The notes beneath the pieces are model-generated. The model searched no databases and was not told the DNA's origin. It saw only the letters and a list, made by a program, of their open reading frames with translations. Position numbers and translations under genes: made by a program. From positions 230,956,596 through 231,014,000 of the forward strand of contig CM097882.1 in assembly GCA_044892505.1 (NCBI GenBank): DNA of 57,405 bases, in the 5' to 3' direction. Shown one piece after another: positions 2,215 through 36,549 of the stretch (position 1 is the first letter of the stretch; every line of letters begins with the position of its first letter). The DNA comes from Schmidtea nova. Taxonomy: Eukaryota.

Positions 2215-2228
2215 AGTAACGCATTAGT

Positions 2229-7601: not shown

Positions 7602-7602
<1 letters not shown>

Positions 7603-12193: not shown

Positions 12194-12407
12194 TATTAGA
12201 ATTTGTCCCTTGAAACAAAGGGTTATCAGCGGTTTGTCCCTTGAAACAAAGGGTTATTAGAATTTGTCCCTTGAAACAAAGGGTTATCAGCGGTTTGTCC
12301 CTTGAAACAAAGGGTTATTAGAATTTGTCCCTTGAAACAAAGGGTTATCAGCGGTTTGTCCCTTGAAACAAAGGGTTATTAGAATTTGTCCCTTGAAACA
12401 AAGGGTT
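12194..12407 (+). repeat. Tandem array 1: 7 x 30/31-bp units (61-bp dimer)
   Basis: tttgtcccttgaaacaaagggttat followed alternately by tagaa or cagcgg. Confidence 0.95.
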
Positions 12408-12640
12408 GAGGCCAAAGAGCCATATTGAATGACCTAGCTAGGCGTTATTGAGAGATATGATTTAAGGCCAATAGAGCCATTTGAGATAATTGAGATATGA
12501 TTTAAGGCCAATAGAGCCATTTGAGATAATTGAGATATGATTTAAGGCCAATAGAGCCATTTGAGATAATGAGATATGAATTTGAGGCCATAAGAGCCAT
12601 TTGAGATAATTGATATTAATTTGAGGCCAAAGGAGCCAAT
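12408..12640 (+). repeat. Tandem array 2: ~40-bp units
   Basis: gagatatgatttaaggccaatagagccatttgagataatt, about 5 copies with degenerate ends. Confidence 0.9.
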
Positions 12641-12654
12641 AGGGATATCCGGAT

Positions 12655-12915
12655 ATATAGTAACGGAGGGAATATAAGCCCAGGGTTACAATTGTTGAGT
12701 AGCAACGGAGGGAATATAGGCCCAGGGTTGCAATTAGTTAAAATTAAAGGAAGATAGTAACGGAGGGAATATAGGCCCAGGGTTACAATCGTTTGAGTAG
12801 TAACGGAGGGAATATAGGCCCAGGGTTACAATCGTTTGAGTAGCAACGGAGGGAATATAGGCCCAGGGTTGCAAGTGATAAGAAATAACAACAGAGGGAA
12901 TATAGGCCCAGAGTT
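12655..12915 (+). repeat. Tandem array 3: ~43-bp units
   Basis: tag(t/c)aacggagggaatataggcccagggtt, about 6 copies. Confidence 0.9.
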
Positions 12916-13466
12916 GTGATCGTCGACGATAAGGAGAATAGTGCGCACCGATAAAAAGAGAAATGCGAGTAAAGCTGATTATGCGACCTAAAATAATGCA
13001 TGCAAGTAGAATTGAGAAATAGGAGCTGACCGGAAAGACCGGCAGAATTAATAATTAGAGGCTAGCAGAGAGAAAGATAAAGAGATGATAAAATAATAAT
13101 CGAGTCAAATGACTCAGGGAATTAGAGCGTTCGAACGACAAATAAATTGGGAGACCGCGGGAAAAATAATTGATGTATTTTAATAACCGATAGATAATTG
13201 TTATGACTAAATAGATAATTGTGACTAGTATATAGATAATTTAAATAGACTTAAATAAAGGGGAATCTGGGAATGGGGAAAAATAATAGAAACCCAGTAA
13301 TGAGAAGTCCCGTAAAAAGGGAATAAAAGCGCAACGATAACAATAGAGTATCGTTGAAGTGACATTTGTATTTTAGATAAATCAATCAAACCAAACCAAG
13401 CAACCAAGGAAGAAAAGAATCGGAATACGATAAGACAGGAAAATTGAGTATACAAAAGTAATCCCG

Positions 13467-19400: not shown

Positions 19401-20147
19401 CAAGGAGCAACATATCCAATATTCGGAGTAGCAGCAACAAACCTAGTAGTAATAGATACGTATACAGTGGAATTAAAAACGTACGAGGCATTCTTCGACC
19501 CAACAACGGGAGAAATGAAAACTCTACCAATGTGCAAAATCGAGTCAAACACGTGTCAGACTGGTATGTCAACCTTAACATACCAGATACGAGGAAAGGA
19601 ATGTCAACTACAACTGTTAAAGGAAGCAGAATTCGATGAGATACAAGGGAAAACCTTCCAAGAGGAAGAAGAAGACGAGGCAGCAAGAGGAAAAATACTT
19701 CAAGACACCGTACGAGGAGAGAAAAAGATTGAAACACGAACACAAGAAAAGCAAATCAAAATGAGAAATACACCAACGGTACTAATTACCTCCGATGCAG
19801 ATATCGGAATGAGATTTGTAAAAGGTAAAACAGCCTTGAAATGCGGAGTAGCCATGTTGGAAACCAACTACCCCGGCATTTTTGTATCAAAACAAGAAGT
19901 ACCTAGTGCGAAACGCAAAGTGCACACGAACGATGTTAAATTACACCTTTACATGAATAATAAAATGGATTTTCTGTTCCATAGAGGACAAGCGTCACTA
20001 CAAAAAGTGTATTACGATTTAATTAACAACGACTGCATACTAAATAGGGAAATATTAAAGACAAAACTAGCAGTAGCAATCACAAACCCGGATAGTGCAA
20101 TGCCATTATTACCATTGAGAGAAGGTCATTTTGGAAGGGTAGTCTGA
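13467..20147 (+). CDS. gag: Polyprotein part 1: Gag (CA + 3 CCHC), Ubl-like modules, AT-hook, Bcl-2-like domain, signal peptide and N-half of fusion glycoprotein
   Basis: Capsid-like FNGDASKLETFL..IFVGGLR and three CX2CX4HX4C knuckles at 14667-14819. The true start is unresolved (first in-frame ATG 13956). Ends at TGA in frame with the next ORF. Confidence 0.9.
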   Translation: MRKGEKSVIIKPAEKKVDRKINKEDPNSVVIKPAEKNKATKNNNQKGPKGSKARQIIIQKSIIENDKLSVTSNSSSNKENQAEPERNPISEIEVDKTNNDYIEEIEDEVEQETESDDTDNDSKASDNESTKETEIDRNSSDEPNSELETRGNESKITTDSGIEMSEPREEIKDKFSGEPFNGDASKLETFLKEFGIFVEVCKWKPETTISRIQLYLKDSALDLYLEAKNGINPPTSWSAIKDFFQQTFGINKVLNEAFTEFSMRKQKINESNAVYASELKKLAKLIFNQDSPINEELMAAIFVGGLRRPDIRAQVGCQGCKTIDQALETANRFELHMIGNDGRIYLAMDTAQNEQEVNLNNHIPNSQQLNRPPPQRRNEGNKVSNYGNQNNYNPQGPTKQCKTCGKLGHWQQECYQNLNCGKCGVKGHSESRCYTITCFNCGRPGHLSRKCGQRSNQRGNWQNIGNRPNYGNQPTGGNQPNYGNQPNNGNRPEYGNQQNNNNNQNKNTTKEIHLMQEVQRLTELINNTNRGNPQTGQQQINMMRKIESENERLNRESQARHAQEWARIQREEEQKQQERERQPLRINMMRATNQTNTHEKETVPEINPTNLNPTNNESRKEIVPGSEEVEKEIEKEVETEVNQEEKKKIWKKGMMVILPNGHMFRFQYNIKEEIGILFNKVNEMAPGVTKLPREAFLKIEGAPEVKLKLTDTWENMGVVETKRNVMVIKEIEPEGIPPPVRHETRISRIFKGKMIRRRLGEIDELERKMRKVEVVDDESKSTQKTIENETKPTENTPSEINQIKHINMLRGQAKNFSDDEEDSDVSSLAGDMLNEPEIEDKKIEVVKTQGTIQVKEDEIQKLLDNTLEVIYNEEFIDKKHYRKFMRAILQMNYKEWLPGREVETLTQYVGKLLKEPLHEYIILIEIKTCLPRIWIKTPLTEDIYQWVEDRLGSSYKNKFLYSQNGLVKKRTHLIETGIWPGEVTTLSICDDKREENIQEVAKEANTCFEKKIKPRSEYEKGRILRGNLNSMIEQIIPQIKKHRKELMRSEYEKLKRCIECIRDTSHTRWSQISYGKVIAKMGKAMFRQGKITDLKIAVELPNEDTKEIEVVADCTIKELVNVLNETLLQREPEEEWEDDIIMKYNEHVLWDHDERRLYKIGIWDNHQTIHVIRMDDKPRETAKDEKRERERQKEVVHKLQQIVDIYRNWRIWPEWEDVLEELNLNRRLRKPVEKQWNERGKCWEPKAGEYEEEYEIGIEDDHKPETGRVCMVTRKAMPADLDGPETTTMWLEREKQKTEEFVEILKTNAHGKRKVVKGLADFFVVNGEDITCFRKVAKAIAEYKRVNEWCPEQLDHVIKKWRNQEFSQESPQKVHLRIVYPNQEKEEFWVGIAEKVRDIKRKLRYEPPFHLQHQGRSLDNSLEIGITPAQLDIANTLTVAAIAGQPLKLKEEKKPKGSMSTPSPMKSVMTPGTSSEQARTTPRETRERTPPEPYDVDEIFTDSDDMLEELIELTKEKDDNIFERIQELPTAIPVTNTEDEVEQEIIIEEVNEIAEEEARRANVENVQFTQEMERWLEERANEPRDVTEETGRETRLVETGTTMDKRPRGRPKMDPANVIIKSREEKRRDQWDLCLKKLNKIAETKEKETTQTYQGEEWISKMLMEILAIIDPELKKWWRINEISERAKSLHSAIAPILPELIKEKTRSNHLDWQGTTMLIKKLTEGAETDNKYLIAMAYTIYNLLTLSRGRLKPTALERHIKNTAKIIEKEIEPYIINKGGWETFTKTNQKKNQSKNMKKKFEEILGELEKEKSGTGNGKSSLNLSSIIMMMLIWMISTDGATAFEVFDCDQMALGEKYSLRGTEQCKDATPTELKTLKKRQLYHVYQEAELIRTMVRECKVYKTRFAFYCGHRHYSAIVMPGTERESVMLQGEDCEKLFKHGEVETRDRVKIRGKTGVILQQTYYVAGAITGGEGYCQGATYPIFGVAATNLVVIDTYTVELKTYEAFFDPTTGEMKTLPMCKIESNTCQTGMSTLTYQIRGKECQLQLLKEAEFDEIQGKTFQEEEEDEAARGKILQDTVRGEKKIETRTQEKQIKMRNTPTVLITSDADIGMRFVKGKTALKCGVAMLETNYPGIFVSKQEVPSAKRKVHTNDVKLHLYMNNKMDFLFHRGQASLQKVYYDLINNDCILNREILKTKLAVAITNPDSAMPLLPLREGHFGRVV
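18350..18830 (+). other. Bcl-2-like domain in the polyprotein
   Basis: Helical domain ending EIEPYIINKGGWETF (BH2-like WI..xGGW..F), with a weak BH1-like LDWQGTTMLI. Confidence 0.55.
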
Positions 20148-20850
20148 GAGGTCATGTATGTATACATATGTAAAAAGACAAACGCGAAAGTAGCGACAAT
20201 GACAAAATTACAACCAGGTCAGTGTACTAACGAACTAGAAATCGAATATAAAGGGAAAGTGAGATATGTACAACCAGTGACAAGAATCATAAATCCAATA
20301 AGCTTCGAACCAAATCCTTTCAATTGCAGCAACGCATATGGACCACTATACCAAAGGCCAGACGGGAATTGGGTTATGTTTCCGTCAAGAACAGAGGTAC
20401 CAGCACCAAGAGAATTTGAATTAATGCAACTATCAAAAGGAAGAAAATTTAAAGACGTAGATGTAAGCAATATGGGATTCTATAGTGCAAAAGATTTAGA
20501 GGCAGCAAGACAAAACATACTATTTCCAGCAAGACGAGAAGCGGTGTTATCCAGTATTGTAACAATAACAGGAGGAACAAATTACCAAGGTGGACCAAAT
20601 TACGAATTATTATTGTCACCAGCCCACTTTAAGAAGGCAACGGAAAACATGATGAAAGCGATGTGGGGAAGATTTTTAATATTTGGACAAATGATGGCAG
20701 GAATACTTGGTGTTATACTAATTATACAAATAATACGGGTAATAATAACGCAAATGTTAGCCTGTTTTGACATCTATAAAAGAGAAAAGAAAGTAAATTG
20801 GAAATTGGTGGTAGGATTCTTACCATTTTTGGCTAAAACAATGGTATTAC
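18933..20850 (+). other. env: Env: chuvirus-like (class III, gB-related) fusion glycoprotein with internal signal peptide and TM
   Basis: SSIIMMMLIWMISTDGATA followed by FEVFDC..YSL..C, FYCGHRHYS, G.CQGATY, CG..LETNYPGIF, (G)EVMY..C and C.NEL...Y. TM FLIFGQMMAGILGVILIIQII at ~20673-20770. Confidence 0.8.
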
Positions 20851-23800
20851 ACGGCCATTCAAAAGATATTCACCGAATAAAGAGACTCCTAAAAATACTG
20901 GCAAAAATGAAAGGAACCGACGAAGAAGTAGGACGGAAATTTAAAAAGATAATGAACAATGAGCAAGCGAGACAACAACTAAAGAAAGAGAGAAAAGGAC
21001 TATGGGAAAGAATGAAAGGGTACAGAACCCAAGACGATTCCAGTGACGACGATGATGATGATAACGAAGGAGGGCAAGTATATAAAAATCAAGTACCACA
21101 GTATGTCGAAAAGAATCCAGCCGAAATGTGGAAGTGTTACGCACCCGCACCAACCATGTACCAAGAACCAACACCAGGGATGAGACAAAATACAATGCAA
21201 ATGATGCCGATGACAAACATATATCCTATGATACCGGAAGACTATAGAACGAGACGGTGCAGAAGTGTAGATCCGCAAGGAGACTCACATACAATTGCAG
21301 TAATGTCATCAAACACCGGTCCAGTATTAACTACAACAATCGAAATTAACGGAAGGGAAATAGAAGCGATGATTGATACAGGAGCAAATATCTCAGCAAT
21401 AGATATAAAATGGATACCACAAGAACAAAGACGGGATATCGAGAGAACCAACGTTCACGTAATAGCATGCAGTAAAGAAGTAGTAGAAGTTGCCGGAAGA
21501 TGGCGGGTAAAGATAAAACATCAAAACACGGAAATCGAAACGTACGTAGCAGTAATACCAGCACTGAGCGTACCATGCATTATAGGCACGGATCTAATGC
21601 CAGCATTATTTAAAGAAATAGTTATTGACCTCGGAACAATGAGATTAAAGGATAGGACAGGACAGATATGCGCAATAGAAGCAAAAGTAACAAGTTCGAA
21701 ACAAATAATCGTACCAGCACGGAGAAAGAAAATATGTTTCGTAAAAATAGATCCTACAATAGAAGGTGACATGATCTTTGAACCCAGTAAAAGATTTGAA
21801 AAGAGAAAGTCGTTGCCAATGGCAAGGGGATTAGTGAGTGCGAACGACAACGGAGAAATCCCGATAAATGTAGTAAATTTCGATGAAGAGGATAAAATAA
21901 TTTATGAAAATGAAAGATTAGGTAAACTAACTCCAATGATAGATATCGAAATACCAATAAAAGAAGGAGTAAAAGAGGAGGAACCCACTTGGAACATTGA
22001 TAGCCAACTATTGAATGAGGAGCAAAAGAAACAGCTAGAAAGATTACTGATAGAATATAAAGACATATTCGCAGCATCCGATTTAGATCTAGGGACATGT
22101 GATGTCACACTACATACGATTCCACTAACAGACGAAACGCCGATTGCGTTAAGACCATACAAGTTAGCTGAAGCGCAAAAATCAGTAGCAGAAGCAGAGG
22201 TACAGAAAATGCTAGACGCAGAAGTAATTGAACCAAGCTGCTCACCGTGGCAATTCCCAGTTGTAATGGTGAAAAAGAAAGACGGAACACAACGATTTTG
22301 TATTGATTATCGGAGATTAAATGCGGTAACAAAACGGGATACCTACCCATTACCAGACATCAACGAGATGTTATTGACATTACAAGGAGCGGCATATTTT
22401 ACATCATTGGATTTGAAAAGCGGATACTGGCAAATTAAAATGAAGGAGGAAGACAAAGAGAAAACTGCTTTCCCCATCGGAAGAGACTTGTACCAATTTA
22501 GGAAAATGCCATTCGGACTAACCAATGCGCCAGCATCATTTCAAAGATGTATGAATTTCGTTACCCATGGCATAAAACAATGCATGGTTTACATTGACGA
22601 CCTACTGATCTACTCAAGCACATTTGAACAACACATCCAAGATATCAGAGATGTATTTGTGAGATTGAGACAATGGAAACTCAAGCTCAAACCATCGAAA
22701 TGCGATTGGGCAAAAGAGAAAGTGACATTCTTAGGACATATTGTGTCCGCAAAAGGAAAGGAACCAGATCCCAGAAACATTGATAAAGTAAAAGAATGTC
22801 CAGTACCAAAGACGATAACGCAGATCCAAGAATTTCTCGGATTATGCGGTTACTATAGAAAATTCATAAAGGATTACGCAGGAATTGCAAAACCAATCCA
22901 GGAGCTAGTAAAGAAAGACGTATCGTTCATATGGGGAAGCGAACAACAAACAGCCTTCGAAACATTACGAGATAGGTTAATAACCGCACCAATATTGGTT
23001 CACCCGGATTTCAAGAAGCCATTTTTACTCGCAACCGACGCAAGTGGATATGCAGCAGGAGCAGTGTTAGGACAATATGATGACGAGGGAAAAGAGCGGG
23101 TAATCGGATATTATAGCAGAACATTCAAGAAACACGAGAAGAATTATTCAGTAACGGAAAGAGAAGCATTGGCAATAATATTAGCAATAAAACACTTTAA
23201 ATATCTATTATGGGGACACATTATATGCATAACCACGGATCATCAACCACTGGTATGGCTAGGACAACATAAGGAAACATCCAGCAGGTTGATGAGATGG
23301 GCGATGCAATTACAAGAATATTCACCAGATATAAAATTCAAATCAGGAAAAGCGAATGCCAACGCAGATTGCATGTCAAGATTAACGTTTCCAGAATTAA
23401 CAGACCCAGAAGTGCAAAGAATATGCATAATGATAGCAGAGGATTTGGATTTCAGTGAGTTAAAGAAAGATCAGCAAGAGGATAAAGAACTAAGACCCAT
23501 CATAGAATTCCTAAGCTCACGGAATATGGATGTATTCAAAGACAATACGGAGTTAAAAGAACACATGAGGAAATACCAACATCGATACACAATAGAAAAA
23601 GGATGGTTATTAATACGAGATGGAGAGAAACGATTAATGTGTCTGCCAGGTAATAGACGAAAAGAGATAATAACTCAATACCATGACGGAAAGCTAGGAG
23701 GACACATGTCCGATAAGAAGACATTAGATCGTATGAGACAAAAATATTATTGGCCAACAATGGACGAGGACGTTAAAGAATGGATAAAGAACTGTTTAAC

Positions 23801-26800
23801 TTGTGCCACAAGAAAGGATAGTGGGAAGAAATGGAAAAATCCCTTAAAACCCATGCCGATACCAGCAGAACCAATGACTACCATTGCGATGGATGTAATA
23901 GGACCATTGCCAGAAAGTTTAAACGGGAATCAATATATATTGGTAATAACGGATTATTTGACTAAATTCCCTGAAGCATTTGCGATGCCGGATCAAAAAG
24001 CAAAGACCGTAGCAAGAATTTTAGTAGAGGAAATATGTTGTCGATATGGAACTCCGAAACAAATACTGACAGATCAAGGGACAAATTTTATGAGCGAAAT
24101 ATTAGATGAAGTAACAAATTACTTCAGAATAGCCAAATTACGAACGTCACCATATCATCCGCAAACTAATGGACAAACGGAAAGATTTACCGGCACATTG
24201 ATTCGAATGTTATCCAATTATGTAAGCAAACACCAAACAGATTGGGATGAGTACATAAAGCTATGTCTAATGGCATACCGAATGTCGATACACGCAGCAA
24301 CAAAATTGAGTCCATTTCAATTAATGTATGGAAGGGAATGCAATATGCCAATAGATCTTGAATATCAACCACCTTTGTCTCAATATATGGAGGAAGATGA
24401 TTACGTCACCAAATTCAAAGAACGAATGCAAGAGATATGGAAGACCGCAGAACTAAACATAAAGTTTTATCAAGAGAGTTACAAGGACCTACACGATCAG
24501 AAGAAGAATGTTAGAGCAAATGATCTTAAACCCGGAGATTGGGTAATGATAGAAACCCCAGAAATAATACCAGGAACCGTTAAAAAACTACAAAGACCAG
24601 GAAAAGGCCCTTACGAAGTTATATACAAAAAGGAAAACAATGTGAAGGTAAAACTTGTTAATCGACCATTGATACGACCAATATACGTTAATACATGCAG
24701 ATGTAAAAAAGTACCAAAGACAATAACCACAGCGCCAGAAGAACGAATAATAACCAGATCCCAGACAGCCAGAATGAATATGCTCAGAGCAACCAATGAA
24801 AGTACCGAAGCAGAAAACAATCAACAAGAAAAAAGAAACAAGGAAATTGTACTAAAAGCCAGAGAAATAATGGGAAAATGGCATGTCAGAGACGATATAT
24901 TAAGAGATATTCAGTCGATAATTAGTGATTACGCAAGGGGACTACCAACAAAACCAGTCATTTCAGAACTACTGGAAAAGATTCCAGAAATACTTTCACT
25001 AGAAGACATAGGAGGACAACCAGCATTACATAACGCCATAAAATGGGGAGAAGTAGAGAGAGTAAAAGAATTTCTAAAAATCGCTAAGGAAACAAACCAA
25101 CACCTTGGTTTTGGGAATAGCGAACAAGAAACACCATTAATGGTAGCAGCCATCTACAAATCGGATAAAGCAATAATAGACCTTTTGATAAATGCCGATT
25201 TCAACTGGACGGAACGCGATAGAGAAAACAAAACAGTCTTGAATCACGCAATATGGAGCTCAAATCAGATAATGCTCAAACAAATAATCGAGAAGGCCAC
25301 TTGGGAAATAGACGAACTGATCAAAGGTGATATAATCAAGGAGGCAATAAAAATCGGTAACTGCAAAACAATACGCAAGCTAATAAAGTGGAAAAGATCC
25401 GAAAATGATACATGGGTATTAAATATAAACGAGGTATACAGTGAAGGACAAAACGCGTTATTACAATTCCTATTAAAATTAGTTTGTGATCAGAAAACAC
25501 TGTTAATATTATTGGACAGAAGAAATATTACAATTTCCAAAAACAAAGAGGAGTGTAAATTCGAAAGGGAAAAAGAAGCATTATTCAGGAAAATTAGGGA
25601 ATGGTGTGCAAAATCGCTAACCAAGACGATAACTTACAAAGATATATCCAATTTTCAAGACAAATACAAAACGGTGGAGGAAGAGTATGACAAACTAATA
25701 GACATATTAAACCACCCTGAAAAATGCAAACAATTCCTATGTCGAAAGGAAAGAGAAAGCAAAAGGAAATTTACACCACTTTTCAGCGCAGAGATACCAT
25801 ATCAAGAAAGGTTAGATGCGATACAGGACAAAGCAAAAGAACTATTACCAGAATTCGAAAATTCTAAACATACACTGGAGATACTCGGAGCAATTGTGGA
25901 AAAGGTACACGCATACGCGGAAGGAACTTACAATGAAAACGATATGATGATCATAAAAAGAGAAATGCCAGTGACTTTCTTATTAACAAAGAATGGAGTA
26001 TTGCCAATACATAGAGCCTTACGAGCAGGAAAAGATAGGAGGGTAGTCGAAATTGCACGGTTGATGCAAGATTGCGGAAGTGACATGAACATGAAAGATA
26101 AAAAGGGAGATACTCTCATGATATTCGCAGCAAGAGCGAACACAAAAACCCGAGTGTTACAGGAACTGTACGAAGCAGGTGCAGGACTCATGGGAAGAAC
26201 CAACAAAGACAGCTCAATACTAGACGTAGCGTTGTTAGCGCACAATTGGGAGGTGATAAATTTCATAAAAACAATCACAAATCAGGAGGAAATAGAATAC
26301 CTTATAAGGACAGTTAAAAAAGCTAGCGTACATTCCATGATGCATAACGCTGGACTAACCGAAGCAATACTCAATTGGATGAACCCAAACACCAATGAAC
26401 CAGCATTCAGGATCAACGAGTTCATGGAACAAGGCCAAAATTTGTATATAAAGTGGGCATTAATAATAAACAAATGGCCAAAGATAATAGACATCTTCAT
26501 GAGAAGAAAAGATTTGCGATTCACAAACAACCCAAAGGAAACAGAACGTACGGACAAATGGAAAGAACTAATGAAAACGTACCTTAATAATTGGATAAAA
26601 GCCAAGAAAGAGATTCTAGATTGTAAATTAACCGATAAGGAAATACCTAAGCAGGCAGTAACACAAGAATATAAAGCAAGTATACTCACAACCATAACGT
26701 ATGAAAAAATGGTAGAAGCAATAAATGTCGAGGACGACATTTTCAACGACCAAAGGGGAGGCGACAATACAGGAAACGACGACGATAGTACTCGAGAAAA

Positions 26801-28907
26801 TCCAGAGGATCATGAGTTATCAGATGAAGAGGACAGTGAAGAGAAAGGAAGGGACACAGAGAAAAAGGATAAGAAAAATGAATTTGGGAAACAAAGAAAC
26901 AACAACTATAAAAATAAAAACGAAGCAAAAAGAACAAGCTACAAACAAACAATAAATCCATTCTTTAAACCAGAACTATTATTACTAACGGTAATCATGA
27001 CCTTAATTAGTCCCACTCAAGGAATGATATGTGAAGAAAAAGCGACAATACAAATTGGAAACGCAAAAGGAATCGAACGAGTATGTTGGTCAAAAAAGGA
27101 CAAAATATCGGGACAAAATAGTCCAATGGATTGCAGGATCTCAGAATACGAACAAGAAATCATAGAGATCGATGACCTAGAGCTAGATACTTGGTACAGA
27201 ATGTGCACCGTTCGGAAACCAAAGGATCCGAGATCACATAAGACAATTGCATGTGCAAATTACCTAACACCCAAAATAACCATAACAGTACAGCAGACAT
27301 CCAAAGGAGACTACGTCGTAGGAAAGTGTGGAAAAACAGAGACCCAAGGAACAAAAAACAAAAAAACCCAGACAATAGATAGACGAACAACGCCAACTAT
27401 ACGAATTACCATAGACAGGCCCGAAGCAAGAGTAACCACAAATGAAACCGAAAGAGTGACCTACCAAACAGAATTACTATGTTTAGCACTCATATTAACA
27501 ATGTTAAAACGGTTAGAAGAAGGGATAGACATTGACACAATGGCAGTAACAGAGATGATCGACACCCAAAACACCAACCCAAAGTGTTGGGCCAGAAGCA
27601 ACGAAGAAATTGGCGTAAGCGAAATAAAGACGAGTTGGAAAAGGAAAACAAATAAAGTAACCAAGATATCAGAAGTAAAAGCAGACAGGACGTATGAACT
27701 ATGTTTACTAGAAAAAGAAAGACACAAGAAAGGAACGACAATTTGTAAAACATTTCAACCTGGGGAAACAATAAAGTTCATAAGACGAGGAAGAAAAAAT
27801 ATACGCACCAAACGGAGAACAACTATAATGTTAGAGTTAACCGGGATAGAACCGGACGTCAAAGGCGTATGCTGGAAGAAGCAAGAAAAGAAAACAAACC
27901 AGAATACACCGCCGCAATGTCGAACAAACAGAGGAACAACCACAATACAGATAGAAGGGTTAGAAAGTAATCAAACGTACGAAATATGCCTGATCAGGAA
28001 GAGCGACAAAATAACAGTAAATGAACTGGAATGCAAAATATATAAAACACCCACCAGAACGAGAATTGGAAAGACAACGCAAAAAAGCAGAAGACAACGG
28101 AACAAAGGAAAAGCGAGGTATACCACTACTTTTAAACCTAATGGACAACAGAAAAACCAAGAAATACAAATAAAGAATACTACAGCAACTCTTATACTAG
28201 GGAGAATAGACAATAAAACGTTAGAAATATGTTGGGCAGTAGTTCAGGAACGAAAAGAAAGACGGCCACGAAACTGCGAAAACGTAAAAGGAAAAGAAGA
28301 AATGAGTATCAAAAATCTGAAATTTAATAGAGAATACGAGATATGTGCGGTAGAAAAGACGGACATATTGGGAAATCAGCAGGAAAGATGCGAAACGTAC
28401 TACACACCGGTAAACTCAACGTCCAAAGGGAAAGTGAGAAAACTCGAATTTAAAGAGTTAAGTCAGACAACGAAACAAATGGACGAGGAACAAGTAGTAA
28501 TAGACCCTTACGCAAGATGGACGCCGGAAGAAGTAATTAGAGAAGTTAAAAGAAAACAACAAGAACGAGAACAACTACTAAATAAACTAAAGGGACAATA
28601 CGGACCAATGATTAACCAGAGTGAAATTACGAAGATGGACGTAAACAAACAAGTTAGAGAACTAATTGGTCTAGGAATACTAGCAGCAACTATTCCAGTA
28701 ATAACAGTATTATTAATAATATGGATATATGATGTATTCAACAAGAAACCAATAACACATTGGCCAGATATAAAGATTATGAACTACAGTATAGAATTAC
28801 CGGAGGAAGTACAGAAAGAATTCCAAAGGAGGACGAAAGGTAAAGAATTTTGGAGACAAATAGAGGATGAAGAGCGATACGAAGGAAAGACAGTGATGGT
28901 GATATAG
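20154..28907 (+). CDS. pol: Polyprotein part 2: glycoprotein C-half + TM, PR, RT, RNase H, IN, ankyrin modules, FN3-like membrane protein
   Basis: IDTGA (21372), SPWQFPVVMVKKKDG, YIDD (22590), TDASG, HDGKLGGH..CLTC, MDVIGPLP, TDQGTNF, HPQTNGQTER, GPYEV. Confidence 0.96.
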   Translation: MYVYICKKTNAKVATMTKLQPGQCTNELEIEYKGKVRYVQPVTRIINPISFEPNPFNCSNAYGPLYQRPDGNWVMFPSRTEVPAPREFELMQLSKGRKFKDVDVSNMGFYSAKDLEAARQNILFPARREAVLSSIVTITGGTNYQGGPNYELLLSPAHFKKATENMMKAMWGRFLIFGQMMAGILGVILIIQIIRVIITQMLACFDIYKREKKVNWKLVVGFLPFLAKTMVLHGHSKDIHRIKRLLKILAKMKGTDEEVGRKFKKIMNNEQARQQLKKERKGLWERMKGYRTQDDSSDDDDDDNEGGQVYKNQVPQYVEKNPAEMWKCYAPAPTMYQEPTPGMRQNTMQMMPMTNIYPMIPEDYRTRRCRSVDPQGDSHTIAVMSSNTGPVLTTTIEINGREIEAMIDTGANISAIDIKWIPQEQRRDIERTNVHVIACSKEVVEVAGRWRVKIKHQNTEIETYVAVIPALSVPCIIGTDLMPALFKEIVIDLGTMRLKDRTGQICAIEAKVTSSKQIIVPARRKKICFVKIDPTIEGDMIFEPSKRFEKRKSLPMARGLVSANDNGEIPINVVNFDEEDKIIYENERLGKLTPMIDIEIPIKEGVKEEEPTWNIDSQLLNEEQKKQLERLLIEYKDIFAASDLDLGTCDVTLHTIPLTDETPIALRPYKLAEAQKSVAEAEVQKMLDAEVIEPSCSPWQFPVVMVKKKDGTQRFCIDYRRLNAVTKRDTYPLPDINEMLLTLQGAAYFTSLDLKSGYWQIKMKEEDKEKTAFPIGRDLYQFRKMPFGLTNAPASFQRCMNFVTHGIKQCMVYIDDLLIYSSTFEQHIQDIRDVFVRLRQWKLKLKPSKCDWAKEKVTFLGHIVSAKGKEPDPRNIDKVKECPVPKTITQIQEFLGLCGYYRKFIKDYAGIAKPIQELVKKDVSFIWGSEQQTAFETLRDRLITAPILVHPDFKKPFLLATDASGYAAGAVLGQYDDEGKERVIGYYSRTFKKHEKNYSVTEREALAIILAIKHFKYLLWGHIICITTDHQPLVWLGQHKETSSRLMRWAMQLQEYSPDIKFKSGKANANADCMSRLTFPELTDPEVQRICIMIAEDLDFSELKKDQQEDKELRPIIEFLSSRNMDVFKDNTELKEHMRKYQHRYTIEKGWLLIRDGEKRLMCLPGNRRKEIITQYHDGKLGGHMSDKKTLDRMRQKYYWPTMDEDVKEWIKNCLTCATRKDSGKKWKNPLKPMPIPAEPMTTIAMDVIGPLPESLNGNQYILVITDYLTKFPEAFAMPDQKAKTVARILVEEICCRYGTPKQILTDQGTNFMSEILDEVTNYFRIAKLRTSPYHPQTNGQTERFTGTLIRMLSNYVSKHQTDWDEYIKLCLMAYRMSIHAATKLSPFQLMYGRECNMPIDLEYQPPLSQYMEEDDYVTKFKERMQEIWKTAELNIKFYQESYKDLHDQKKNVRANDLKPGDWVMIETPEIIPGTVKKLQRPGKGPYEVIYKKENNVKVKLVNRPLIRPIYVNTCRCKKVPKTITTAPEERIITRSQTARMNMLRATNESTEAENNQQEKRNKEIVLKAREIMGKWHVRDDILRDIQSIISDYARGLPTKPVISELLEKIPEILSLEDIGGQPALHNAIKWGEVERVKEFLKIAKETNQHLGFGNSEQETPLMVAAIYKSDKAIIDLLINADFNWTERDRENKTVLNHAIWSSNQIMLKQIIEKATWEIDELIKGDIIKEAIKIGNCKTIRKLIKWKRSENDTWVLNINEVYSEGQNALLQFLLKLVCDQKTLLILLDRRNITISKNKEECKFEREKEALFRKIREWCAKSLTKTITYKDISNFQDKYKTVEEEYDKLIDILNHPEKCKQFLCRKERESKRKFTPLFSAEIPYQERLDAIQDKAKELLPEFENSKHTLEILGAIVEKVHAYAEGTYNENDMMIIKREMPVTFLLTKNGVLPIHRALRAGKDRRVVEIARLMQDCGSDMNMKDKKGDTLMIFAARANTKTRVLQELYEAGAGLMGRTNKDSSILDVALLAHNWEVINFIKTITNQEEIEYLIRTVKKASVHSMMHNAGLTEAILNWMNPNTNEPAFRINEFMEQGQNLYIKWALIINKWPKIIDIFMRRKDLRFTNNPKETERTDKWKELMKTYLNNWIKAKKEILDCKLTDKEIPKQAVTQEYKASILTTITYEKMVEAINVEDDIFNDQRGGDNTGNDDDSTRENPEDHELSDEEDSEEKGRDTEKKDKKNEFGKQRNNNYKNKNEAKRTSYKQTINPFFKPELLLLTVIMTLISPTQGMICEEKATIQIGNAKGIERVCWSKKDKISGQNSPMDCRISEYEQEIIEIDDLELDTWYRMCTVRKPKDPRSHKTIACANYLTPKITITVQQTSKGDYVVGKCGKTETQGTKNKKTQTIDRRTTPTIRITIDRPEARVTTNETERVTYQTELLCLALILTMLKRLEEGIDIDTMAVTEMIDTQNTNPKCWARSNEEIGVSEIKTSWKRKTNKVTKISEVKADRTYELCLLEKERHKKGTTICKTFQPGETIKFIRRGRKNIRTKRRTTIMLELTGIEPDVKGVCWKKQEKKTNQNTPPQCRTNRGTTTIQIEGLESNQTYEICLIRKSDKITVNELECKIYKTPTRTRIGKTTQKSRRQRNKGKARYTTTFKPNGQQKNQEIQIKNTTATLILGRIDNKTLEICWAVVQERKERRPRNCENVKGKEEMSIKNLKFNREYEICAVEKTDILGNQQERCETYYTPVNSTSKGKVRKLEFKELSQTTKQMDEEQVVIDPYARWTPEEVIREVKRKQQEREQLLNKLKGQYGPMINQSEITKMDVNKQVRELIGLGILAATIPVITVLLIIWIYDVFNKKPITHWPDIKIMNYSIELPEEVQKEFQRRTKGKEFWRQIEDEERYEGKTVMVI
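24840..26640 (+). other. Two tandem ankyrin-repeat modules after integrase
   Basis: GGQPALHNAI, ETPLMVAA, KTVLNHAI, then GVLPIHRAL, GDTLMIFAA, SSILDVAL. The paired ends read INEVYSEGQN and INEFMEQGQN. Confidence 0.8.
26970..28907 (+). other. C-terminal type-I membrane protein with FN3-like repeats
   Basis: Signal-like ELLLLTVIMTLISPTQG, four VCW..C..I..L...T.Y.IC..C modules, and TM LIGLGILAATIPVITVLLIIWIY at 28662-28740. Confidence 0.65.
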
Positions 28908-29032
28908 GAGGCGGGATATGACTGTAAATAATAGTGTAAATAACAATGCATTATCGTAATAGTATGGGTATCGATATTATAAAAATATAAAAAGAGAAAT
29001 CGAGAAAACGATTAATGTATATAATTTAGAAA

Positions 29033-29389
29033 ATGAACGAACAGGAAGAAATAGCAGAAACTACTATGGCTATGCGATGGAAAGCCCAGTGTGACATGTT
29101 AATACGAACAATCAACTCACTACAAAATCAGTTAATTGAGAAACAGAATTTGTTATCCGAAAGTTATAATAATAGTTTTGAACAACTCCACAGAATCGAG
29201 GAGCAACAGAGATTGATAACGCAACTTACCAGAGAGAATCAAGTAATGAGCGACATAAATCAGAGACAAGCAATAGAGATAGACCGTTTAACAATGGGAG
29301 AGACAGAAGAAGCAGAGGATGGATGGACAAATTGGGCAATAAACAGATCAGAAAACGACCCAGAACCAGATTCAACAAACGAGCCGTAG
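29033..29389 (+). CDS. 118-aa coiled-coil accessory protein
   Basis: ATG ORF with heptad-like Q/E/L content, flanked by AT-rich spacers. Confidence 0.65.
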   Translation: MNEQEEIAETTMAMRWKAQCDMLIRTINSLQNQLIEKQNLLSESYNNSFEQLHRIEEQQRLITQLTRENQVMSDINQRQAIEIDRLTMGETEEAEDGWTNWAINRSENDPEPDSTNEP

Positions 29390-29479
29390 ATAAATAAAGC
29401 GAAAAATTGTAAATATGTAAAACAAAAACAAGAAAAATCAAAAAATAAATAACAAATCAAGTGTATATATCATTGTAGA

Positions 29480-30862
29480 ATGAATACAGAAGGAAAAGCC
29501 GAAGAGCGGATAATCGAAATTTTGAGAGCCGAGAACAGGAAATGGAGTCAGAGACTCACTTGTGTAAATTGTAAAAACAAAATATTGAAACCAAGACAAA
29601 CCCTATGCGGATGCAGAGTATGTACCAAATGCATACACGAGTTAAGTATGAAAAGACCACCAGAATGTCCAGAATGCAAAGAAGGACAAATAAAATTCGA
29701 AGAAACCGGACCAGATAGAGCAACTCAGAGAGAAATCATGAACACGAAAACCGAATGTATAAATCAACCATGTATATGACAAGGACAAATACGCGATCTC
29801 GAGAACCATCTGGAGAACTGCGAAGAGAAGAGAACTGAATGTAACAAATGCCAACAAAAAATAACTATAAAGAATAAAGAGCAGCACAAAGATGAATGTA
29901 AAGAAGAGGAAAGTCTATGCGAATATTGTGGAACTCGAGAAACGAGGAGAAAGATCGAAGAAGAACACCTGAATGTAAAAGAGGAGAAAGTATGTAGACA
30001 ATATGTAGGAATATGTGCAAACGAATGCGAGATAACGGTAGAAGTAAAATTACAAGAACATTGGAAAGTGTGCACGGAGAAACCAAGGGAATGTCCTTAT
30101 AACAAACAGGGATGTATGGAGAAAAGAACGCAAAAAACCATGAAACAACATCTGGAGGAAGCATTGCTAAAGCATGCGGAAATGACAAACGAAGCAACAA
30201 AAGAAACCGAACAAACAATCAAAAAATTAGAAAGAGAAATAGAGTCACACAAGATAATGGTAAACCTACTGTTGGAAACCAGAGAGCAATTCGAACTAAC
30301 ACGAGAAAAGATGGAGGAAAAGATAAAAGCTATCGAAGAATTGGCTAAAGGAATGAAAATCCAGTACAACAAACTCACCCAGGATACCGAGGAAAAGTTA
30401 CCAATCGCACCATATGTGTGGAAAGTGACAGATTTTAGAGACAAATTAACAGAGGCCAGAAATATGACGAAAACAGCAGTAATAAGCCCACCATTTTATT
30501 TATGGAGAAACGGAGCTAAAGTGAGATTGAAGCTATACCCAAATGGAGACGGAAGAGGACGAGGAACACATGTGTCAATATTTTTCTCGCTATGTAAAGG
30601 GGAATACGACGACCTAGTAGAATGGCCCTTGAAAGTAGGAGTCATTGTAAGAATCAGAAGTGTAACAAAACCAGTAGAAAAATTCTTTGAGACAGAGAAA
30701 CATGCGAGTACGAGCGAGAAACCAACCACAGAATGTGGATTAGCAGCGGGAGAACCGATGTTTATAACGAAAGAAAGCCTATGGGAACGATTATATGCAG
30801 ACACCCTATACATAGAAATGGAAAGGAATGAGAAAGCGGATAGAAAAGGATGGTTGACGTAA
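29480..30862 (+). pseudogene. TRAF: TRAF-family protein (RING, TRAF zinc fingers, coiled coil, MATH), 460 codons with one in-frame TGA at 29777-79
   Basis: ORFs 29480-29779 and 30068-30862 are in one frame, and I found no other stop between them. MATH motif YVWKV..F...SPPFY...LYPNGDGRGRGTHVSIFF..GEYD..EWP. The TGA sits at the Trp of C.W.G. Confidence 0.9.
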
Positions 30863-30977
30863 CAAGAAAAGTGATCATGTAAATAATATGTACAGTTAAA
30901 TACCCAAAAATTATTATATAAACAAAAATAACTGATATATAAACCGATTAAAAAATTCTTTTTCTGTAATTATAGCA

Positions 30978-32039
30978 ATGGGAAATATCGAAGTATGCTT
31001 ACAGGAAATTACGATGCATCAAGCAGAAGCGATTAGCGATCATCTAGAACAGATCGAAATATGGGTCAATGCATATTATAGAAAGCAGGAGAAGGTAGAG
31101 AGACAAGCCGAATTATTAAAAGAAGCGGAAAGATCAAGTCAAAGAAGTCGAGAAAAAATAGAAGAAGTATACAAAATGCTAAAACAACAAAAGGAATATT
31201 ACCAGGGAATGATGAAAGAGCGACGAGAGGAAAGAGACAGACAGCAGATGGAAACAGAACACAAGATGTATTCGATTACAGAACAAGCAAGATACTGGAA
31301 GAAAGAAGCGAAAGAATCTTACGAAAAAGCTAGAGAAATAATAGAACGGACAGCTTATAGTGATGACTGGAAGTTATATAAAGAGATCGATGAACTAAAA
31401 GACGAGTTAGAGCAAAAAATCAACCAGGAAGTGTTAAATAAAAGATGGAATACAAAAAGACAGCAATTTATCCGCGAACAAGCAAAGGAAATTAAAGGAC
31501 TAACCTATCAAGTTCAAAGAATGGGAGAAGAACTAGCTAATCAAGAACAACTGAAAACTATGCTCACCGGAATATGGAATCAGAAAGAAGAAGAGATGAA
31601 GAGAGATATAAATGGTTACCAAGGAGTGATTACCCAGAAGAAAATAGAGCTAAAAAGAACCAGAGAAAGGTTAAAGGAAGAGAAACAAAGTTATGAGGAA
31701 AATTTAACAAATTTGATGAAAGAAAACGAAGAATTGAAACAGAAACGAGTAACAGTATCGGTAATACCTAAAGAAGCAAGTATAACGGCAGCCGTAACAA
31801 AAATGATGAAAGAAGACGAACAAAAGACAAAAGTAATCGAATTAGAAAAGCAAATAGAAACATTAACAGAACAAGCAAATTACCTAGAATATTGGCTGGA
31901 CGAGGAGATCCAGATATCTCACATGTATCGAGATGAAGTCGAAATGTGGAGGAGCAGGGTTGTTTGGATACCACTCCCTACGAACCAGGTAGAACCTCAG
32001 GACGAAGGTTTCTACGAACCAAACGAGACGATTGTGTAA
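30978..32039 (+). CDS. 353-aa coiled-coil accessory protein
   Basis: Long E/K/Q-rich ATG ORF. Confidence 0.75.
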   Translation: MGNIEVCLQEITMHQAEAISDHLEQIEIWVNAYYRKQEKVERQAELLKEAERSSQRSREKIEEVYKMLKQQKEYYQGMMKERREERDRQQMETEHKMYSITEQARYWKKEAKESYEKAREIIERTAYSDDWKLYKEIDELKDELEQKINQEVLNKRWNTKRQQFIREQAKEIKGLTYQVQRMGEELANQEQLKTMLTGIWNQKEEEMKRDINGYQGVITQKKIELKRTRERLKEEKQSYEENLTNLMKENEELKQKRVTVSVIPKEASITAAVTKMMKEDEQKTKVIELEKQIETLTEQANYLEYWLDEEIQISHMYRDEVEMWRSRVVWIPLPTNQVEPQDEGFYEPNETIV

Positions 32040-32121
32040 ATAAAGCGGAAAATATATTTTTGTAAATAATTGTATGAAATGTAGTGTCAAATTGTATTGA
32101 CCTATCTGTAAAGAAAACAGT

Positions 32122-32694
32122 TTGAAAAAGCTCAGAATACCGATATTCCTATACCTAATAACAATCACCCTACAAAGAGAAGATCTTCAACTCACAGAGA
32201 AGGAGCTACGAGCCCTACCCGAGAAAACCTATCAAGAGCTAGATAAACTAATCAGCGAAGCAACACAAGAAATCACCCAACTTCAACAGATAACATTAGA
32301 CAACCCAAACGATGAAAAATTTCAACAGGTCCTATACGAACATCGAATCAAATTGAAAACAATCAGAAAAACCCTAAAAGAAGGTCGAGAACCCATAAAA
32401 AGCTTAGCCCAAGCAGAGATAGAATATCAAGAAAAATGGATCATCGCAATTATAATAATCCTTGCACTCAGCGTGACCATTATCGCGATCACAATCCTCA
32501 TAACATCCTACCGAGTAAAGATCCTAAAACAAAAACAAGTCATCTTGAATCGAACAACAATACCAGATATCAGAACCCAAAAACGAATGAGAAAACATCT
32601 CAACCGAATCCAAAGCCTCTACGAACTACGAACAATCAGCGAAAGAACCCCAATCCAATCCAATACCAATCATGAAATCAAAGAGCTGGTGTAA
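32122..32694 (+). CDS. 190-aa predicted membrane protein (signal-like N-terminus, TM WIIAIIIILALSVTIIAITILI), TTG start
   Basis: Open frame. (M)KKLRIPIFLYLITITLQ looks like a signal peptide but the first codon is TTG. Confidence 0.6.
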   Translation: MKKLRIPIFLYLITITLQREDLQLTEKELRALPEKTYQELDKLISEATQEITQLQQITLDNPNDEKFQQVLYEHRIKLKTIRKTLKEGREPIKSLAQAEIEYQEKWIIAIIIILALSVTIIAITILITSYRVKILKQKQVILNRTTIPDIRTQKRMRKHLNRIQSLYELRTISERTPIQSNTNHEIKELV

Positions 32695-32899: not shown

Positions 32900-34291
32900 T
32901 GTTGGGCCAGCCAAATAGAGGGAACAGTGAAATAAAAGTAGATTAATTAAAACAAAAAAGAGAAAAATAAGGTAAAAAGGGGAATATTTATTTATTAAAA
33001 GAAAGGAATAATATAGTAAAAATATAGATAAACTAAGTACAAGCTATAAATAAAAATAAATGAATTTCTAGATATTAACGGGCCCAGGAGACATCTAAAA
33101 ACAAATAAAATACAAATAATAATAATTAAAACCAAATAAAAGTACTTGTTATTGAATAATTGTTTTTGAAACCCGGACCTCCAAGGAAGAATACAATCTA
33201 AAAAATAAAAATTAATTAGAATCAAAAACAATAATTAAAAACCACCATGAAGCTGGCCGAACCTGATTGGTCGATCTAGACACGACTGATCAGTATAAAT
33301 ACTGATCAGATTTTTCATAAAATTAGACCGTGTAAAAACTTAGACTTTAGTAGACTTTGTTAGAATATAGATTTTAGACTTGTGACTTTGTTTGAGACTA
33401 AAATTTAGACTTTGCAAAAAACTTAGACTTGTGTTCAGACTAAAATTCACATTAGATTGCACATTGCCCCGACGACGATCACCGTTTAGACCGATTTTGA
33501 TCAATAAATTTTCGGAATTCAATTGAGGTATTTTTGGTATATTTACGTTTATTATTTGATATCGTTGTATTCATATGTCATTATCATATTATAATTTATT
33601 GTTTATCTCGTTATGATTTATGTTTATATTTAAACTACTTAAACTATCATATTAATCTTGCGCCGTTGGGAGCTTTAGGTTCCCAAGGTGTCCGTCCGTG
33701 GCGTGGTGCTCGAGGGCTCCACACACGGTAAAGTAATAAATAACAAAACATAATTTTATTAGTGATGGTCGAGATTTGCACATGGGACACCCAACAAATC
33801 CGGGGAATTATTTTCCGATCATTTTAGCTACAGAGGGGACGATAATTTTTTGATAAAGCTTAAAGATATGAAAGAATTTTGTAACCGTAAGGAGGCACGA
33901 ATTGTTCACCCTCACCACAGCACAATTGCTAGATAAACGTCTAATAAACCTTAGAAAAATTATGTCGACCGCATTTGGTACACAAGAGCGTTTTTCGAAT
34001 AAGCTAGGGATACATGACGGGAGAGAGCTTCCGTTTTGAGGTGTCAATATTTTGAAAATCCAAGCAGACAAATCACCAATTTTTCGACTATAATATTGAT
34101 CGTAAACAGATAAATCTAAGTAGATACGAGAGTAACGCATACCGTAACGAACGACAGTTTTCCCTTGATTTCAGTTAAGGTCTAAGGGGTAGGCAAATAA
34201 TAAAGGCATCACGATGAGAGATAACATCTACTATAATTAATTATTGATTTAAATTGTTAACTATTATAAAATTCAGCATCGTTTTGGAATC

Positions 34292-34768
34292 ATGACTAAA
34301 CATAGATACACTATCAAAAAACGACAAGAACGAGCCCGAGTTAGCCCATTAAAACCGGCTCCTTTTGAAATTCTGCAGCAAATCCATCAAAAAATGTGGG
34401 CATGGCGCCGAGAGCTTGAAACCGCCTGTCCATTTACAGTATGGGACCATCCACGGCATCACGTATGGTACCGGGGATGCGCTAGTTGGCCAATCATTCC
34501 AGATGAGGAATTTGAATCATCGCACGCCGCCTGGTTCATCCTGATGTTGGACAAAGGAGGATTCCCGAAATGTGTCATTTATTGGGGGTTCATTCCAGCC
34601 TCTACCTTCAAGGAATTGGGGTTCAAGTTCAACACAGCAATACGACCCCTTCGAGAAGCTGAGAGAACCCGTTTCCAGCAGGCCTCGTCCAATTCCACAG
34701 GAATCCATACAAATTTGCAAATCAGATCGATATTTTCGTATCGAGGAAAAATGACCGAAGATGAATAG
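34292..34768 (+). CDS. LTR-encoded protein 1 (3' LTR copy)
   Basis: Identical to 8994-9470. Confidence 0.7.
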   Translation: MTKHRYTIKKRQERARVSPLKPAPFEILQQIHQKMWAWRRELETACPFTVWDHPRHHVWYRGCASWPIIPDEEFESSHAAWFILMLDKGGFPKCVIYWGFIPASTFKELGFKFNTAIRPLREAERTRFQQASSNSTGIHTNLQIRSIFSYRGKMTEDE

Positions 34769-35086
34769 GTTGAATCAATGGCCACCTGTTTTTGAATTTA
34801 ATAAATGTTTTAAAGAAGTCTGAAGTGTCTCATTTTGTTAATAGTGTTGTCATGTAGATTTAGTATTGTAGTTGTCATAGTCATTAAGAAATTGATTTAT
34901 TAATATAAAATTAGTTCAATAAATCTTTTAAACCTTCAATAATTAGATAGTTGAATAATTTTGCGAAGAACTCAATAATTAAAAACATTAGTATGCATCT
35001 CGTTTAATAATAATAATAGTCGTTTAAATAAAATAGAATTGTTGATAGGTCCTCCAGCGAATTTATCGTTATAATATTCAGATAAC

Positions 35087-35671
35087 ATGCCGACTTCAGA
35101 AAATTCCAAGAAAATCATGGGACAAATCCAAGAGAGGAAGTTGAGGGACCAGCAGCGACAGATCAAGCGACTCACGGTCGCCAATGATGAATTGAGAGCG
35201 AAGTGGTTCTCACCCGAACAAATGAAGGACCAGTCGAAAAAACTTGAGCGAATGCAGGAAGCACTGGCCGCAACTAAATTGGAACTAGATGCCGTCCAGC
35301 GAGAACTACGAAATTGCCTAAACGCAGTAACAAGAAGTTACATCGACTCCGAATTACGAGCGCTAATCCGGCCGATCACGGCTCAGCGCTGGATACAATG
35401 CACCCACCAAGATGTCGCTTGCGGGACGGAAGAGGGAATCATCATGGCCCCCACTCTCGCAACGGAAGATTTGCCTATTTTTCTCAGTGATCCCCCGAGA
35501 ACAATAGCGTCAGCACCGGTCATAAACCAACAGTTTCGAAAACATCGAATGGGATCGCGACAGCGTCGTCGTCGCCGAGAATTTGCGAAGCGCCTGGACG
35601 AACAAATCTACCACTTGAACTCCTTAACCGAAGCGGAGTTGATTCAGGAGATTAGTCTGGAATTCGCTTAG
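35087..35671 (+). CDS. LTR-encoded protein 2, intact 194 aa
   Basis: Open ATG ORF with a coiled-coil N-half and an RQRRRRR basic patch. Confidence 0.75.
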   Translation: MPTSENSKKIMGQIQERKLRDQQRQIKRLTVANDELRAKWFSPEQMKDQSKKLERMQEALAATKLELDAVQRELRNCLNAVTRSYIDSELRALIRPITAQRWIQCTHQDVACGTEEGIIMAPTLATEDLPIFLSDPPRTIASAPVINQQFRKHRMGSRQRRRRREFAKRLDEQIYHLNSLTEAELIQEISLEFA

Positions 35672-36549
35672 GAAAACATCCATGTAAAATAACAACCTGT
35701 TTTTAATATTTTAATAAAAGTATTTTCTGTGTAAATTTTGTCTCTCATCGTGTGATTTCACTAAATAAAATAAATGACTCAATCATAGAAATGGAAAATC
35801 CCATCAATATTTTTCTCAGACCGACCGTTTCTACGCAGAGACTGATTAATTACATTGTAGCTCGATTAAGGAAAGTCATTGGGAAAGATGTATGATAGAT
35901 CATAAGGATATGTAGTACAAAATTCAGTAGGAAACGAACATCCATAGAATGTAAATGCGTAAGACCTTCTATCGGCAGCAAGGACCCGAGGGAAGATAAA
36001 TGGGGAGTAGTTTTGGCAACAAAGCTCACCTGCCCATCAGTTTTCCACCACCGTATGCAGTACCAACTTGACTAGTAGGGAATAGTCAAGGGCATACGCG
36101 TGTAGTAGTCATGTTATGTATGGTTATGGGCGTGGAATCCCTAGTATACGTACTCACCAATAGTCGTTCAATTAATGATTAACTATTTATTTGAATTACT
36201 TAAAANNNNNNNNNNNNNNNNNNNNNNNNNNNNNNNNNNNNNNNNNNNNNNNNNNNNNNNNNNNNNNNNNNNNNNNNNNNNNNNNNNNNNNNNNNNNNNN
36301 NNNNNNNNNNNNNNNNNNNNNNNNNNNNNNNNNNNNNNNNNNNATCATTCACTATAGCGCGGAGGCTATAAAATTTTAATAAACCTAAAAAAAGAAAAAA
36401 GAGTTCTTATTATATATAGATCAAATAATAGATGCTATTTCATGTTTAGAATGATTGTTAAAATATATCTGGCTAGAATAAATAAAAGAAGTAATTATTT
36501 TTGTGTTTGAATAAAGCCGTTAAAGAATTTGTCGAACTATACACATATA

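Follow-up and report, generated by a model that had tools for sequence, protein, structure and literature searches.

A complete TRAF gene with one in-frame TGA, carried downstream of pol in a Burro-like Gypsy element of Schmidtea nova

A stretch of 57,405 nt from Schmidtea nova contig CM097882.1 (assembly GCA_044892505.1, positions 230,956,596 to 231,014,000 of the forward strand) was analysed, and is referred to here as the window; coordinates are counted from its first base and all element features lie on the plus strand. Between 29480 and 30862 the window reads as a single ATG...TAA frame, 460 codons long and broken only by a TGA at codon 100 (29777-29779). This raises the question of whether the frame is a genuine TRAF gene and, if so, what the stop codon within it signifies. 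In 5000 shuffles of its bases, the frame never had one stop or fewer (shuffle mean 31.5 stops), and the remaining two plus-strand frames across the gene hold 46 and 16 stops.

For database searches and structure prediction, the frame was translated with X at the TGA codon. The MATH domain (30413-30826) was matched by Pfam families PF22486 (E 6.5e-21, residues 312-447) and PF21355 (E 1.8e-18), and its best PDB sequence matches are TRAF5, TRAF3 and TRAF2 (E about 1e-22). The zinc fingers (29756-30175), the first of which contains the TGA, match zf-TRAF PF02176 at E 1.3e-4, a score below the curated cutoff, and are also marked by their ligand columns. No Pfam RING match was obtained at E<=0.01; the RING (29561-29677) is identified by the similarity of residues 22-151 to the N-terminal domains of TRAF6, TRAF5 and TRAF2 in the PDB (E 1.8e-11 to 1e-6), and is further backed by conserved ligand columns in an alignment of 138 TRAF-like proteins of 240-750 aa, taken from 167 stored. 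The window protein carries the majority residue of its homologues in every zinc-ligand column except one RING ligand, where it has Cys (found in 28 of 137 rows, as against His in 76). An AlphaFold2 model (mean pLDDT 84.9) comprises RING, fingers, a helix of ~70 residues and a beta-sandwich; the helix (residues 229-300), predicted at high pLDDT before the MATH domain, represents the TRAF-N coiled coil (about 30176-30379). Foldseek returned TRAF1, TRAF3, TRAF2 and TRAF5 as top PDB matches for this model, with structural matches also in BFVD. The MATH domain departs from most homologues at some conserved columns, residue 384 being common to 3 of 134 rows, which suggests that the partners of the element TRAF may differ. 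Both the 460-codon frame and the RING, zinc-finger, coiled-coil and MATH composition that an earlier note had read from the sequence are borne out by these results. The TRAF cargo is a real, full-length, cellular-type gene carried by a retroelement.

The carrier is a Gypsy LTR element of about 28.6 kb with LTRs of about 3.3 kb. The 5' LTR, bounded by TG...CA, spans 3325 nt (7602-10926; blastn and sequence reading) and the 3' LTR extends from 32900 to 36205, where it runs into an N gap (36206-36343) that takes away the final ~20 nt along with any target-site duplication. Aligned by blastn, 7602-10907 and 32900-36205 differ at 4 of 3306 nt; such near identity of the LTRs marks the element copy as young. 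Each LTR contains two ORFs, both intact in the 3' copy (34292-34768 and 35087-35671); in the 5' copy (8994-9470 and 9789-10373) the second, of 194 aa, is stopped by the difference at 9977-9978. These two ORFs are less A-rich than the rest of the element and match no Pfam family. The 5' LTR is followed by a primer-binding-site-like sequence (10933-10950), presumably of the tRNA-Pro type, and just 3' of it by two GTGAGT splice-donor-like sites (11016-11061), which constitute two of the three donor-like matches in 7601-13960 and form a candidate major splice donor. An accessory ORF of 153 aa (11256-11717) has a C-terminal RING (zf-C3HC4_3, E 7.8e-12) that we take to be of the IAP type; the leader between this ORF and gag contains tandem arrays with 61-, 40- and 43-nt units (12193-12933).

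A polyprotein of 4983 codons (13956-28907), itself interrupted by one in-frame TGA, carries gag with a CCHC knuckle, a putative Bcl-2-like segment, env, PR-RT-RH-IN and ankyrin repeats (PF12796, E 3.6e-13). The Bcl-2-like segment, directly before env (18717-18812), is weak (Pfam Bcl-2, E 0.083, below cutoff) and gave no PDB sequence match. The env, located between gag and pol (18951-20780), is a Monjiviricetes-type fusion glycoprotein (PF24664, E 9.8e-70, read with X). Upstream, the reading frame of the polyprotein is open as far back as 13434, which places 174 codons ahead of its first ATG, and codon use in this stretch is element-like (r 0.86); an acceptor-like site occurs in the same frame at 13376, with a TAA at 13431 between this site and the open stretch. 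Region 13377-13955 is possibly the true start of the polyprotein and a third break; according to the accessible text of PMC9851317, a flatworm spliced-leader AUG could supply such a start. After the ankyrin repeats, ~1200 residues (25300-28907) match no Pfam family and show two hydrophobic segments as well as repeated Cys/Trp-containing modules of extracellular appearance. Four ORFs lie 3' of the polyprotein, TRAF being the second and hence an accessory gene downstream of pol. The first (29033-29389, 118 aa) and third (30978-32039, 353 aa) are coiled-coil-like by inspection and match no Pfam family; the fourth is an open frame of 197 codons (32101-32694) that has a transmembrane-like segment, lacks an early ATG and, by inspection, starts like a signal peptide.

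The TRAF gene has adapted to the A-rich style of its carrier at both the codon and the amino-acid level. Its codon usage correlates with that of the polyprotein at r = 0.92, and A occupies 60% of its fourfold sites, compared with 61% in the polyprotein and 38% in a nearby reverse transcriptase (RT) that we take to be Penelope-like. Alignment with an intact relative (P0020, see below) leaves gaps of 13 residues at most and requires no intron. The intronless structure and A-rich codon style, both proposed previously, are confirmed. A lack of introns is compatible with capture from mRNA, though it falls short of proof.

To place the gene, relatives were taken from the best 150 of 4661 matches in an HMMER search of 1.84 billion representatives. 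Among these, four close relatives (P0020, P0036, P0047 and P0147) are 34-38% identical to the window TRAF overall and 37-43% in the N-terminal region. A tree of the N-terminal region (FastTree, midpoint root, 127 of 138 rows) unites all five with a support of 0.993. The same five proteins rank 1-5 of 138 in E+K+R+T content (0.36-0.42, with a median of 0.25), and this shared bias suggests, on composition alone, that all of them come from A-rich elements and that the four relatives are retroelement-borne. A comparison of the window TRAF with P0020 shows identity at 28 of 28 zinc-ligand columns and at 53 of 190 other columns, from which it follows that the cargo was maintained in the element lineage. 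This indicates that the TRAF was kept under purifying selection, at the protein level only, and supports a cargo that was maintained, rather than long dead, in that lineage. MATH is missing from the remaining three relatives, whose sequences appear to be frameshifted or to have been patched together by gene prediction; decay is thus common in the clade, and the selection argument is that of the one intact relative, P0020.

The clade is nested within a set of TRAFs with ordinary composition, most of which have the same RING variant (supports 0.916 and 0.926), in a pattern that fits capture from a cellular TRAF. We infer that the gene was acquired long ago from such a TRAF; it has since drifted to the A-rich style of the element. 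In a tree of the MATH domain (134 of 138 rows) the sisters are different ones, with supports of 0.68-0.88 that are too weak for the naming of a donor from MATH alone. The earlier note's proposal of a retro-captured host TRAF hence stands as regards a cellular-type, A-rich gene carried by an element, but not as regards the donor, for which the two trees give different sisters. No close intact copy came out of seed-based protein searches: 13 matches among 3534 candidates of near length were 23-30% identical over long stretches, and 534 shorter candidates yielded 2 matches. A phage tblastn search gave no match, and the ESM Atlas returned generic animal TRAF clusters only. One further protein, P0032, was considered as a TRAF fused behind a Gypsy integrase tail on the basis of its N-terminal 52 residues (17 of 38 identical, pairwise E 6e-4); this match missed E 0.05 in a 165-protein search with low-complexity filtering, and P0032 is no more than a lead, offering weak support for a putative second, independent TRAF capture.

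We then consider the stop codon. In the homologue alignment, a residue is present at the TGA column in 127 of 137 rows and is Trp in 79 of these. The reading of the TGA as lying at a conserved Trp is accordingly correct for the majority residue, but the column is not invariant, and its residue varies among several of the nearest TRAFs that are not A-rich. All four close relatives have a sense residue there. The same element copy has a second in-frame TGA, which the earlier note missed, in the env region of the polyprotein (20145-20147). An unnamed homologue (P0018), whose env is 36% identical, is uninterrupted across this position. P0018 is encoded on a 27.7-kb contig as a related gag-env-protease polyprotein with a duplicated protease-like domain.

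The presence of a separate TGA in the polyprotein makes it most likely that the element copy is decaying. With the rate of neutral decay set by LTR divergence, the 18.8 kb of coding sequence should have gained 0.69 nonsense changes, giving P(>=2) = 0.15; this value becomes 0.013 with 1 LTR difference in 3306 and 0.51 with 10. Two stops are somewhat above the neutral expectation. The TRAF TGA is most likely an ordinary nonsense lesion of a decaying copy, and the simplest reading of the element is that of a young but already defective one. The stop would be one of two lesions in the internal region, having either arisen once the element had inserted or been present already in a defective parent. 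Contrary to the description of a gene hidden by one TGA, the stop hides no working gene; most likely it is a lesion of this particular copy. Taken as a whole, we consider it probable that the locus represents Burro-type TRAF cargo that was captured, maintained, expressed by splicing and pro-survival in effect, with the TGA as a lesion.

Four other readings were weighed. The TGA could be a base-call or consensus error, with the TRAF of this copy intact. The assembly has 7 N gaps within the window, and of the four LTR differences, two make up a swap of neighbouring bases (9977-9978), which introduces a stop and resembles a compensating pair of indel errors; the near identity of the LTRs, and hence the youth of the copy, is also in keeping with an error. 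However, about 18.8 kb of coding sequence contain no frameshift, a sign of a low error rate, and two stops fit the neutral decay calculated above. We regard an error as unlikely.

Alternatively, the stop may be used, removing the RING form and leaving a RING-less coiled-coil and MATH protein, initiated at ATG 30116, as a TRAF1-like or dominant-negative adaptor. RING-less TRAFs act as dominant negatives. The ORF that begins at this first Met after the TGA (30116-30862, 248 aa) is intact and has the shape of TRAF1, and an AG-free CAG lies 6 nt 5' of its ATG as a weak acceptor-like site, albeit with a T content under the threshold (0.28 versus 0.33). TRAF1 likewise lacks a RING (accessible text of PMC7586133), and other Burro elements are annotated with MATH alone (PMC6431247). 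This use of the stop is nevertheless quite improbable: the upstream RING and zinc-finger ligands are all conserved, which is unexpected of an untranslated region, and the relatives do not have this stop.

Programmed readthrough or recoding, by which the TGA would set the level of full-length TRAF, appears very unlikely. A stop followed by C is a leaky context, and the TRAF TGA is followed by C; a hairpin begins 12 nt 3' of it (z about -2.1 to -2.3), and both internal breaks are TGA. Yet 5 of 100 equal-sized windows of the element fold equally well, the hairpin signal is lost in a 140-nt window (z -0.30), and the env TGA has neither leaky context nor hairpin. The homologues moreover carry different residues at the two TGA columns, so that a single recoding rule cannot serve both, and the relatives are without the stop. 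Selenocysteine at the TRAF TGA was likewise judged unlikely, since Cys occurs in 1 of 127 rows and Rfam was empty at the gathering score. The least probable reading is that of a recently captured or long-dead passenger never of use to the element: although the window copy is broken and 3 of 4 close relatives look broken, the full codon and amino-acid amelioration, the single stop and the retention of all zinc ligands speak against it, and such conservation at about 37% identity to the intact relative requires long purifying selection.

The preferred reading, of maintained cargo with a lesion in this copy, leaves the question of how working copies would express the gene. The 3' ORFs are set apart by spacers of about 80-125 nt. 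Spacer 1 (28908-29032) contains three copies of TGTAHATA and an acceptor-like TAG 3 nt 5' of the next ATG; spacer 2, before TRAF (29390-29479), contains two copies, two AATAAA and a TAG 1 nt 5' of the TRAF ATG; spacer 3 (30863-30977) contains one copy and a pyrimidine tract with a TAG 2 nt 5' of the ATG; a fourth 3' spacer region lies at 32035-32110. We take TGTAHATA to be the Pumilio-type consensus. The four spacers hold 7 copies, compared with a shuffle mean of 0.12, and none of 20000 single-base shuffles reached 7; of 9 copies on the plus strand between 7602 and 32899, 8 lie within or at these four spacers. One and the same 8-mer comes after the stop of both the 118-aa and the 353-aa ORF. 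Acceptor-like ends were defined, after the spacers had been viewed, as a T-rich, AG-free YAG within 20 nt 5' of an ATG. They precede 5 of the 6 accessory starts, compared with 16 of 533 ATGs elsewhere; for the LTR and leader the figure is 4 of 87. The start of TRAF misses this strict test by one AG. Acceptor-like YAGs are found at 8978, 9783, 11252, 29029, 29478 and 30975, 1-15 nt before the six accessory ATGs, and the donor-like sites after the PBS are at 11016 and 11056.

These features suggest that the accessory genes may be expressed from spliced mRNAs, probably by cis-splicing from one major donor as in complex retroviruses. In working copies, the TRAF mRNA would be spliced from the donor after the PBS to the acceptor just 5' of its ATG, and the TGTAHATA motifs point to putative Pumilio-type 3' control of this mRNA. 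Spliced-leader trans-splicing of the accessory mRNAs is an alternative: flatworm operons have ~100-nt gaps (accessible text of PMC8629364), whereas AATAAA occurs in only 1 of 5 spacers. For this same reason, a strict operon model, in which every spacer would carry a poly(A) site, is weak and was set aside. The spacer motifs provide a concrete, checkable model of accessory-gene expression.

As to what the protein might do, we lean towards a TRAF2/3/5-like adaptor and E3 ligase that, together with the IAP-type RING and Bcl-2-like cargo of the element, would promote survival of the host's stem or germ cell or dampen innate signalling. Knockdown of a planarian TRAF raises cleaved caspase-3 (accessible text of PMC7586133), and the IAP of Burro1 is reported to protect stem cells (as relayed in part of PMC13465017). 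The viral TRAF ORF111L of ISKNV is reported, by the title of PMC3352826, to induce apoptosis, and the direction of the effect of the element TRAF is consequently not to be assumed. The present copy would yield a 99-aa RING fragment only, and possibly a RING-less protein from ATG 30116. A broader proposal, which we put forward tentatively, is that Burro-like elements behave as complex retroviruses, using a donor or trans-splicing to produce separate Pumilio-controlled mRNAs for a survival kit (whole TRAF, IAP-type RING and Bcl-2-like proteins, made in stem cells), that TRAF has been carried repeatedly, and that part of the planarian TRAF/MATH expansion may be retroelement-borne.

TRAF/MATH cargo in Burro, including on an accessory ORF, is already published (PMC6431247, as far as the accessible text goes), and the novelty implied by the earlier note was overstated in this respect. 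The Burro of Schmidtea mediterranea is described there as having an env that separates gag from pol, along with MATH_TRAF_C, BIR, BCL2-like and ankyrin domains. The window element resembles Burro-1 to -4/GYPSM1 in its ~30 kb size, multi-kb LTRs and one ~5000-aa polyprotein, in its gag, CCHC knuckles, in-frame mononegavirus-type env, PR-RT-RH-IN and ankyrin, and in its TRAF/MATH and IAP-related cargo (PMC6431247, same portion); its weak candidate Bcl-2-like segment occupies the expected place before env. The MATH_TRAF_C of Burro-1 to -4, by contrast, is inside the polyprotein, whereas the window element has its complete RING-ZF-CC-MATH gene as a separate unit 3' of pol. S. mediterranea Burro also has BIR, dUTPase-like and SUMO-like domains in that account, of which Pfam found none in the window element: no BIR was detected in the 9 ORFs scanned at E<=0.01, and no dUTPase or SUMO-like domain by Pfam, which is less sensitive than the HHpred used in PMC6431247. 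With no BIR found, the element is filed as Burro-like rather than as one of Burro1-4. Closer in layout is a Burro-like element of Dugesia tigrina, with a polyprotein that lacks MATH and a MATH_TRAF_C on a separate accessory ORF (given as 'not shown' in the accessible text of PMC6431247); that ORF is upstream of the polyprotein and described as MATH_TRAF_C only, in contrast to the downstream TRAF of the window.

Anti-apoptotic host-type cargo in Burro is also exemplified by the B-IAP of Burro1 (Lee et al. 2026, as relayed in part of PMC13465017), which combines BIR and RING; the window element instead pairs a whole TRAF with an IAP-type RING for which no BIR was detected. Cellular TRAF2/3/5 and planarian Smed-TRAF-2A/B (accessible text of PMC7586133) share the order of RING, zinc fingers, coiled coil and MATH, and the window TRAF differs from them in its E/K/R/T shift, its RING Cys variant, an identity of about 30% and its carriage by a retroelement. 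Megalocytivirus TRAFs (ISKNV ORF111L, PMC3352826) and those of giant viruses offer a parallel of TRAF capture by a mobile genome to modulate death signalling, but their carriers are DNA viruses and they are 10-27% identical to the window TRAF.

New here are the full-length form of the TRAF and its position downstream of pol. The full-length downstream TRAF and the spacer motifs are undescribed in the Burro and planarian retrotransposon literature searched, although Grohme 2018, Jurka 2007 and Lee 2026 may contain them; the accessible parts of PMC8532177, PMC13238120 and PMC11410931 do not mention TRAF. A TRAF in a Burro-like element will be of little surprise to a specialist, the cargo type being known; what it adds is a complete E3-type TRAF, beyond MATH alone, that is conserved in diverged element-like relatives. 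PMC6431247 suggests, in its accessible portion, that Burro meddles with host apoptosis and ubiquitination, and a conserved complete TRAF makes such interference testable gene by gene. Planarian transcriptomes contain more than 100 MATH/TRAF-like transcripts (accessible texts of PMC6109357 and PMC7586133); should some of these belong to elements, gene counts and RNAi results would have to be read anew. Most worth following are the expression architecture and the fraction of the planarian TRAF expansion that may be owed to retroelements (PMC6109357, partial text).

Rfam and ARAGORN found nothing in the window. The flanks of the element are 70-80% AT. Adjoining the 5' LTR, region 1318-7541 holds inverted copies of the presumably Penelope-like RT together with a perfect 902-nt palindrome, and at 54907-55876 a 29-nt tandem array faces its inverted copy next to N gaps.
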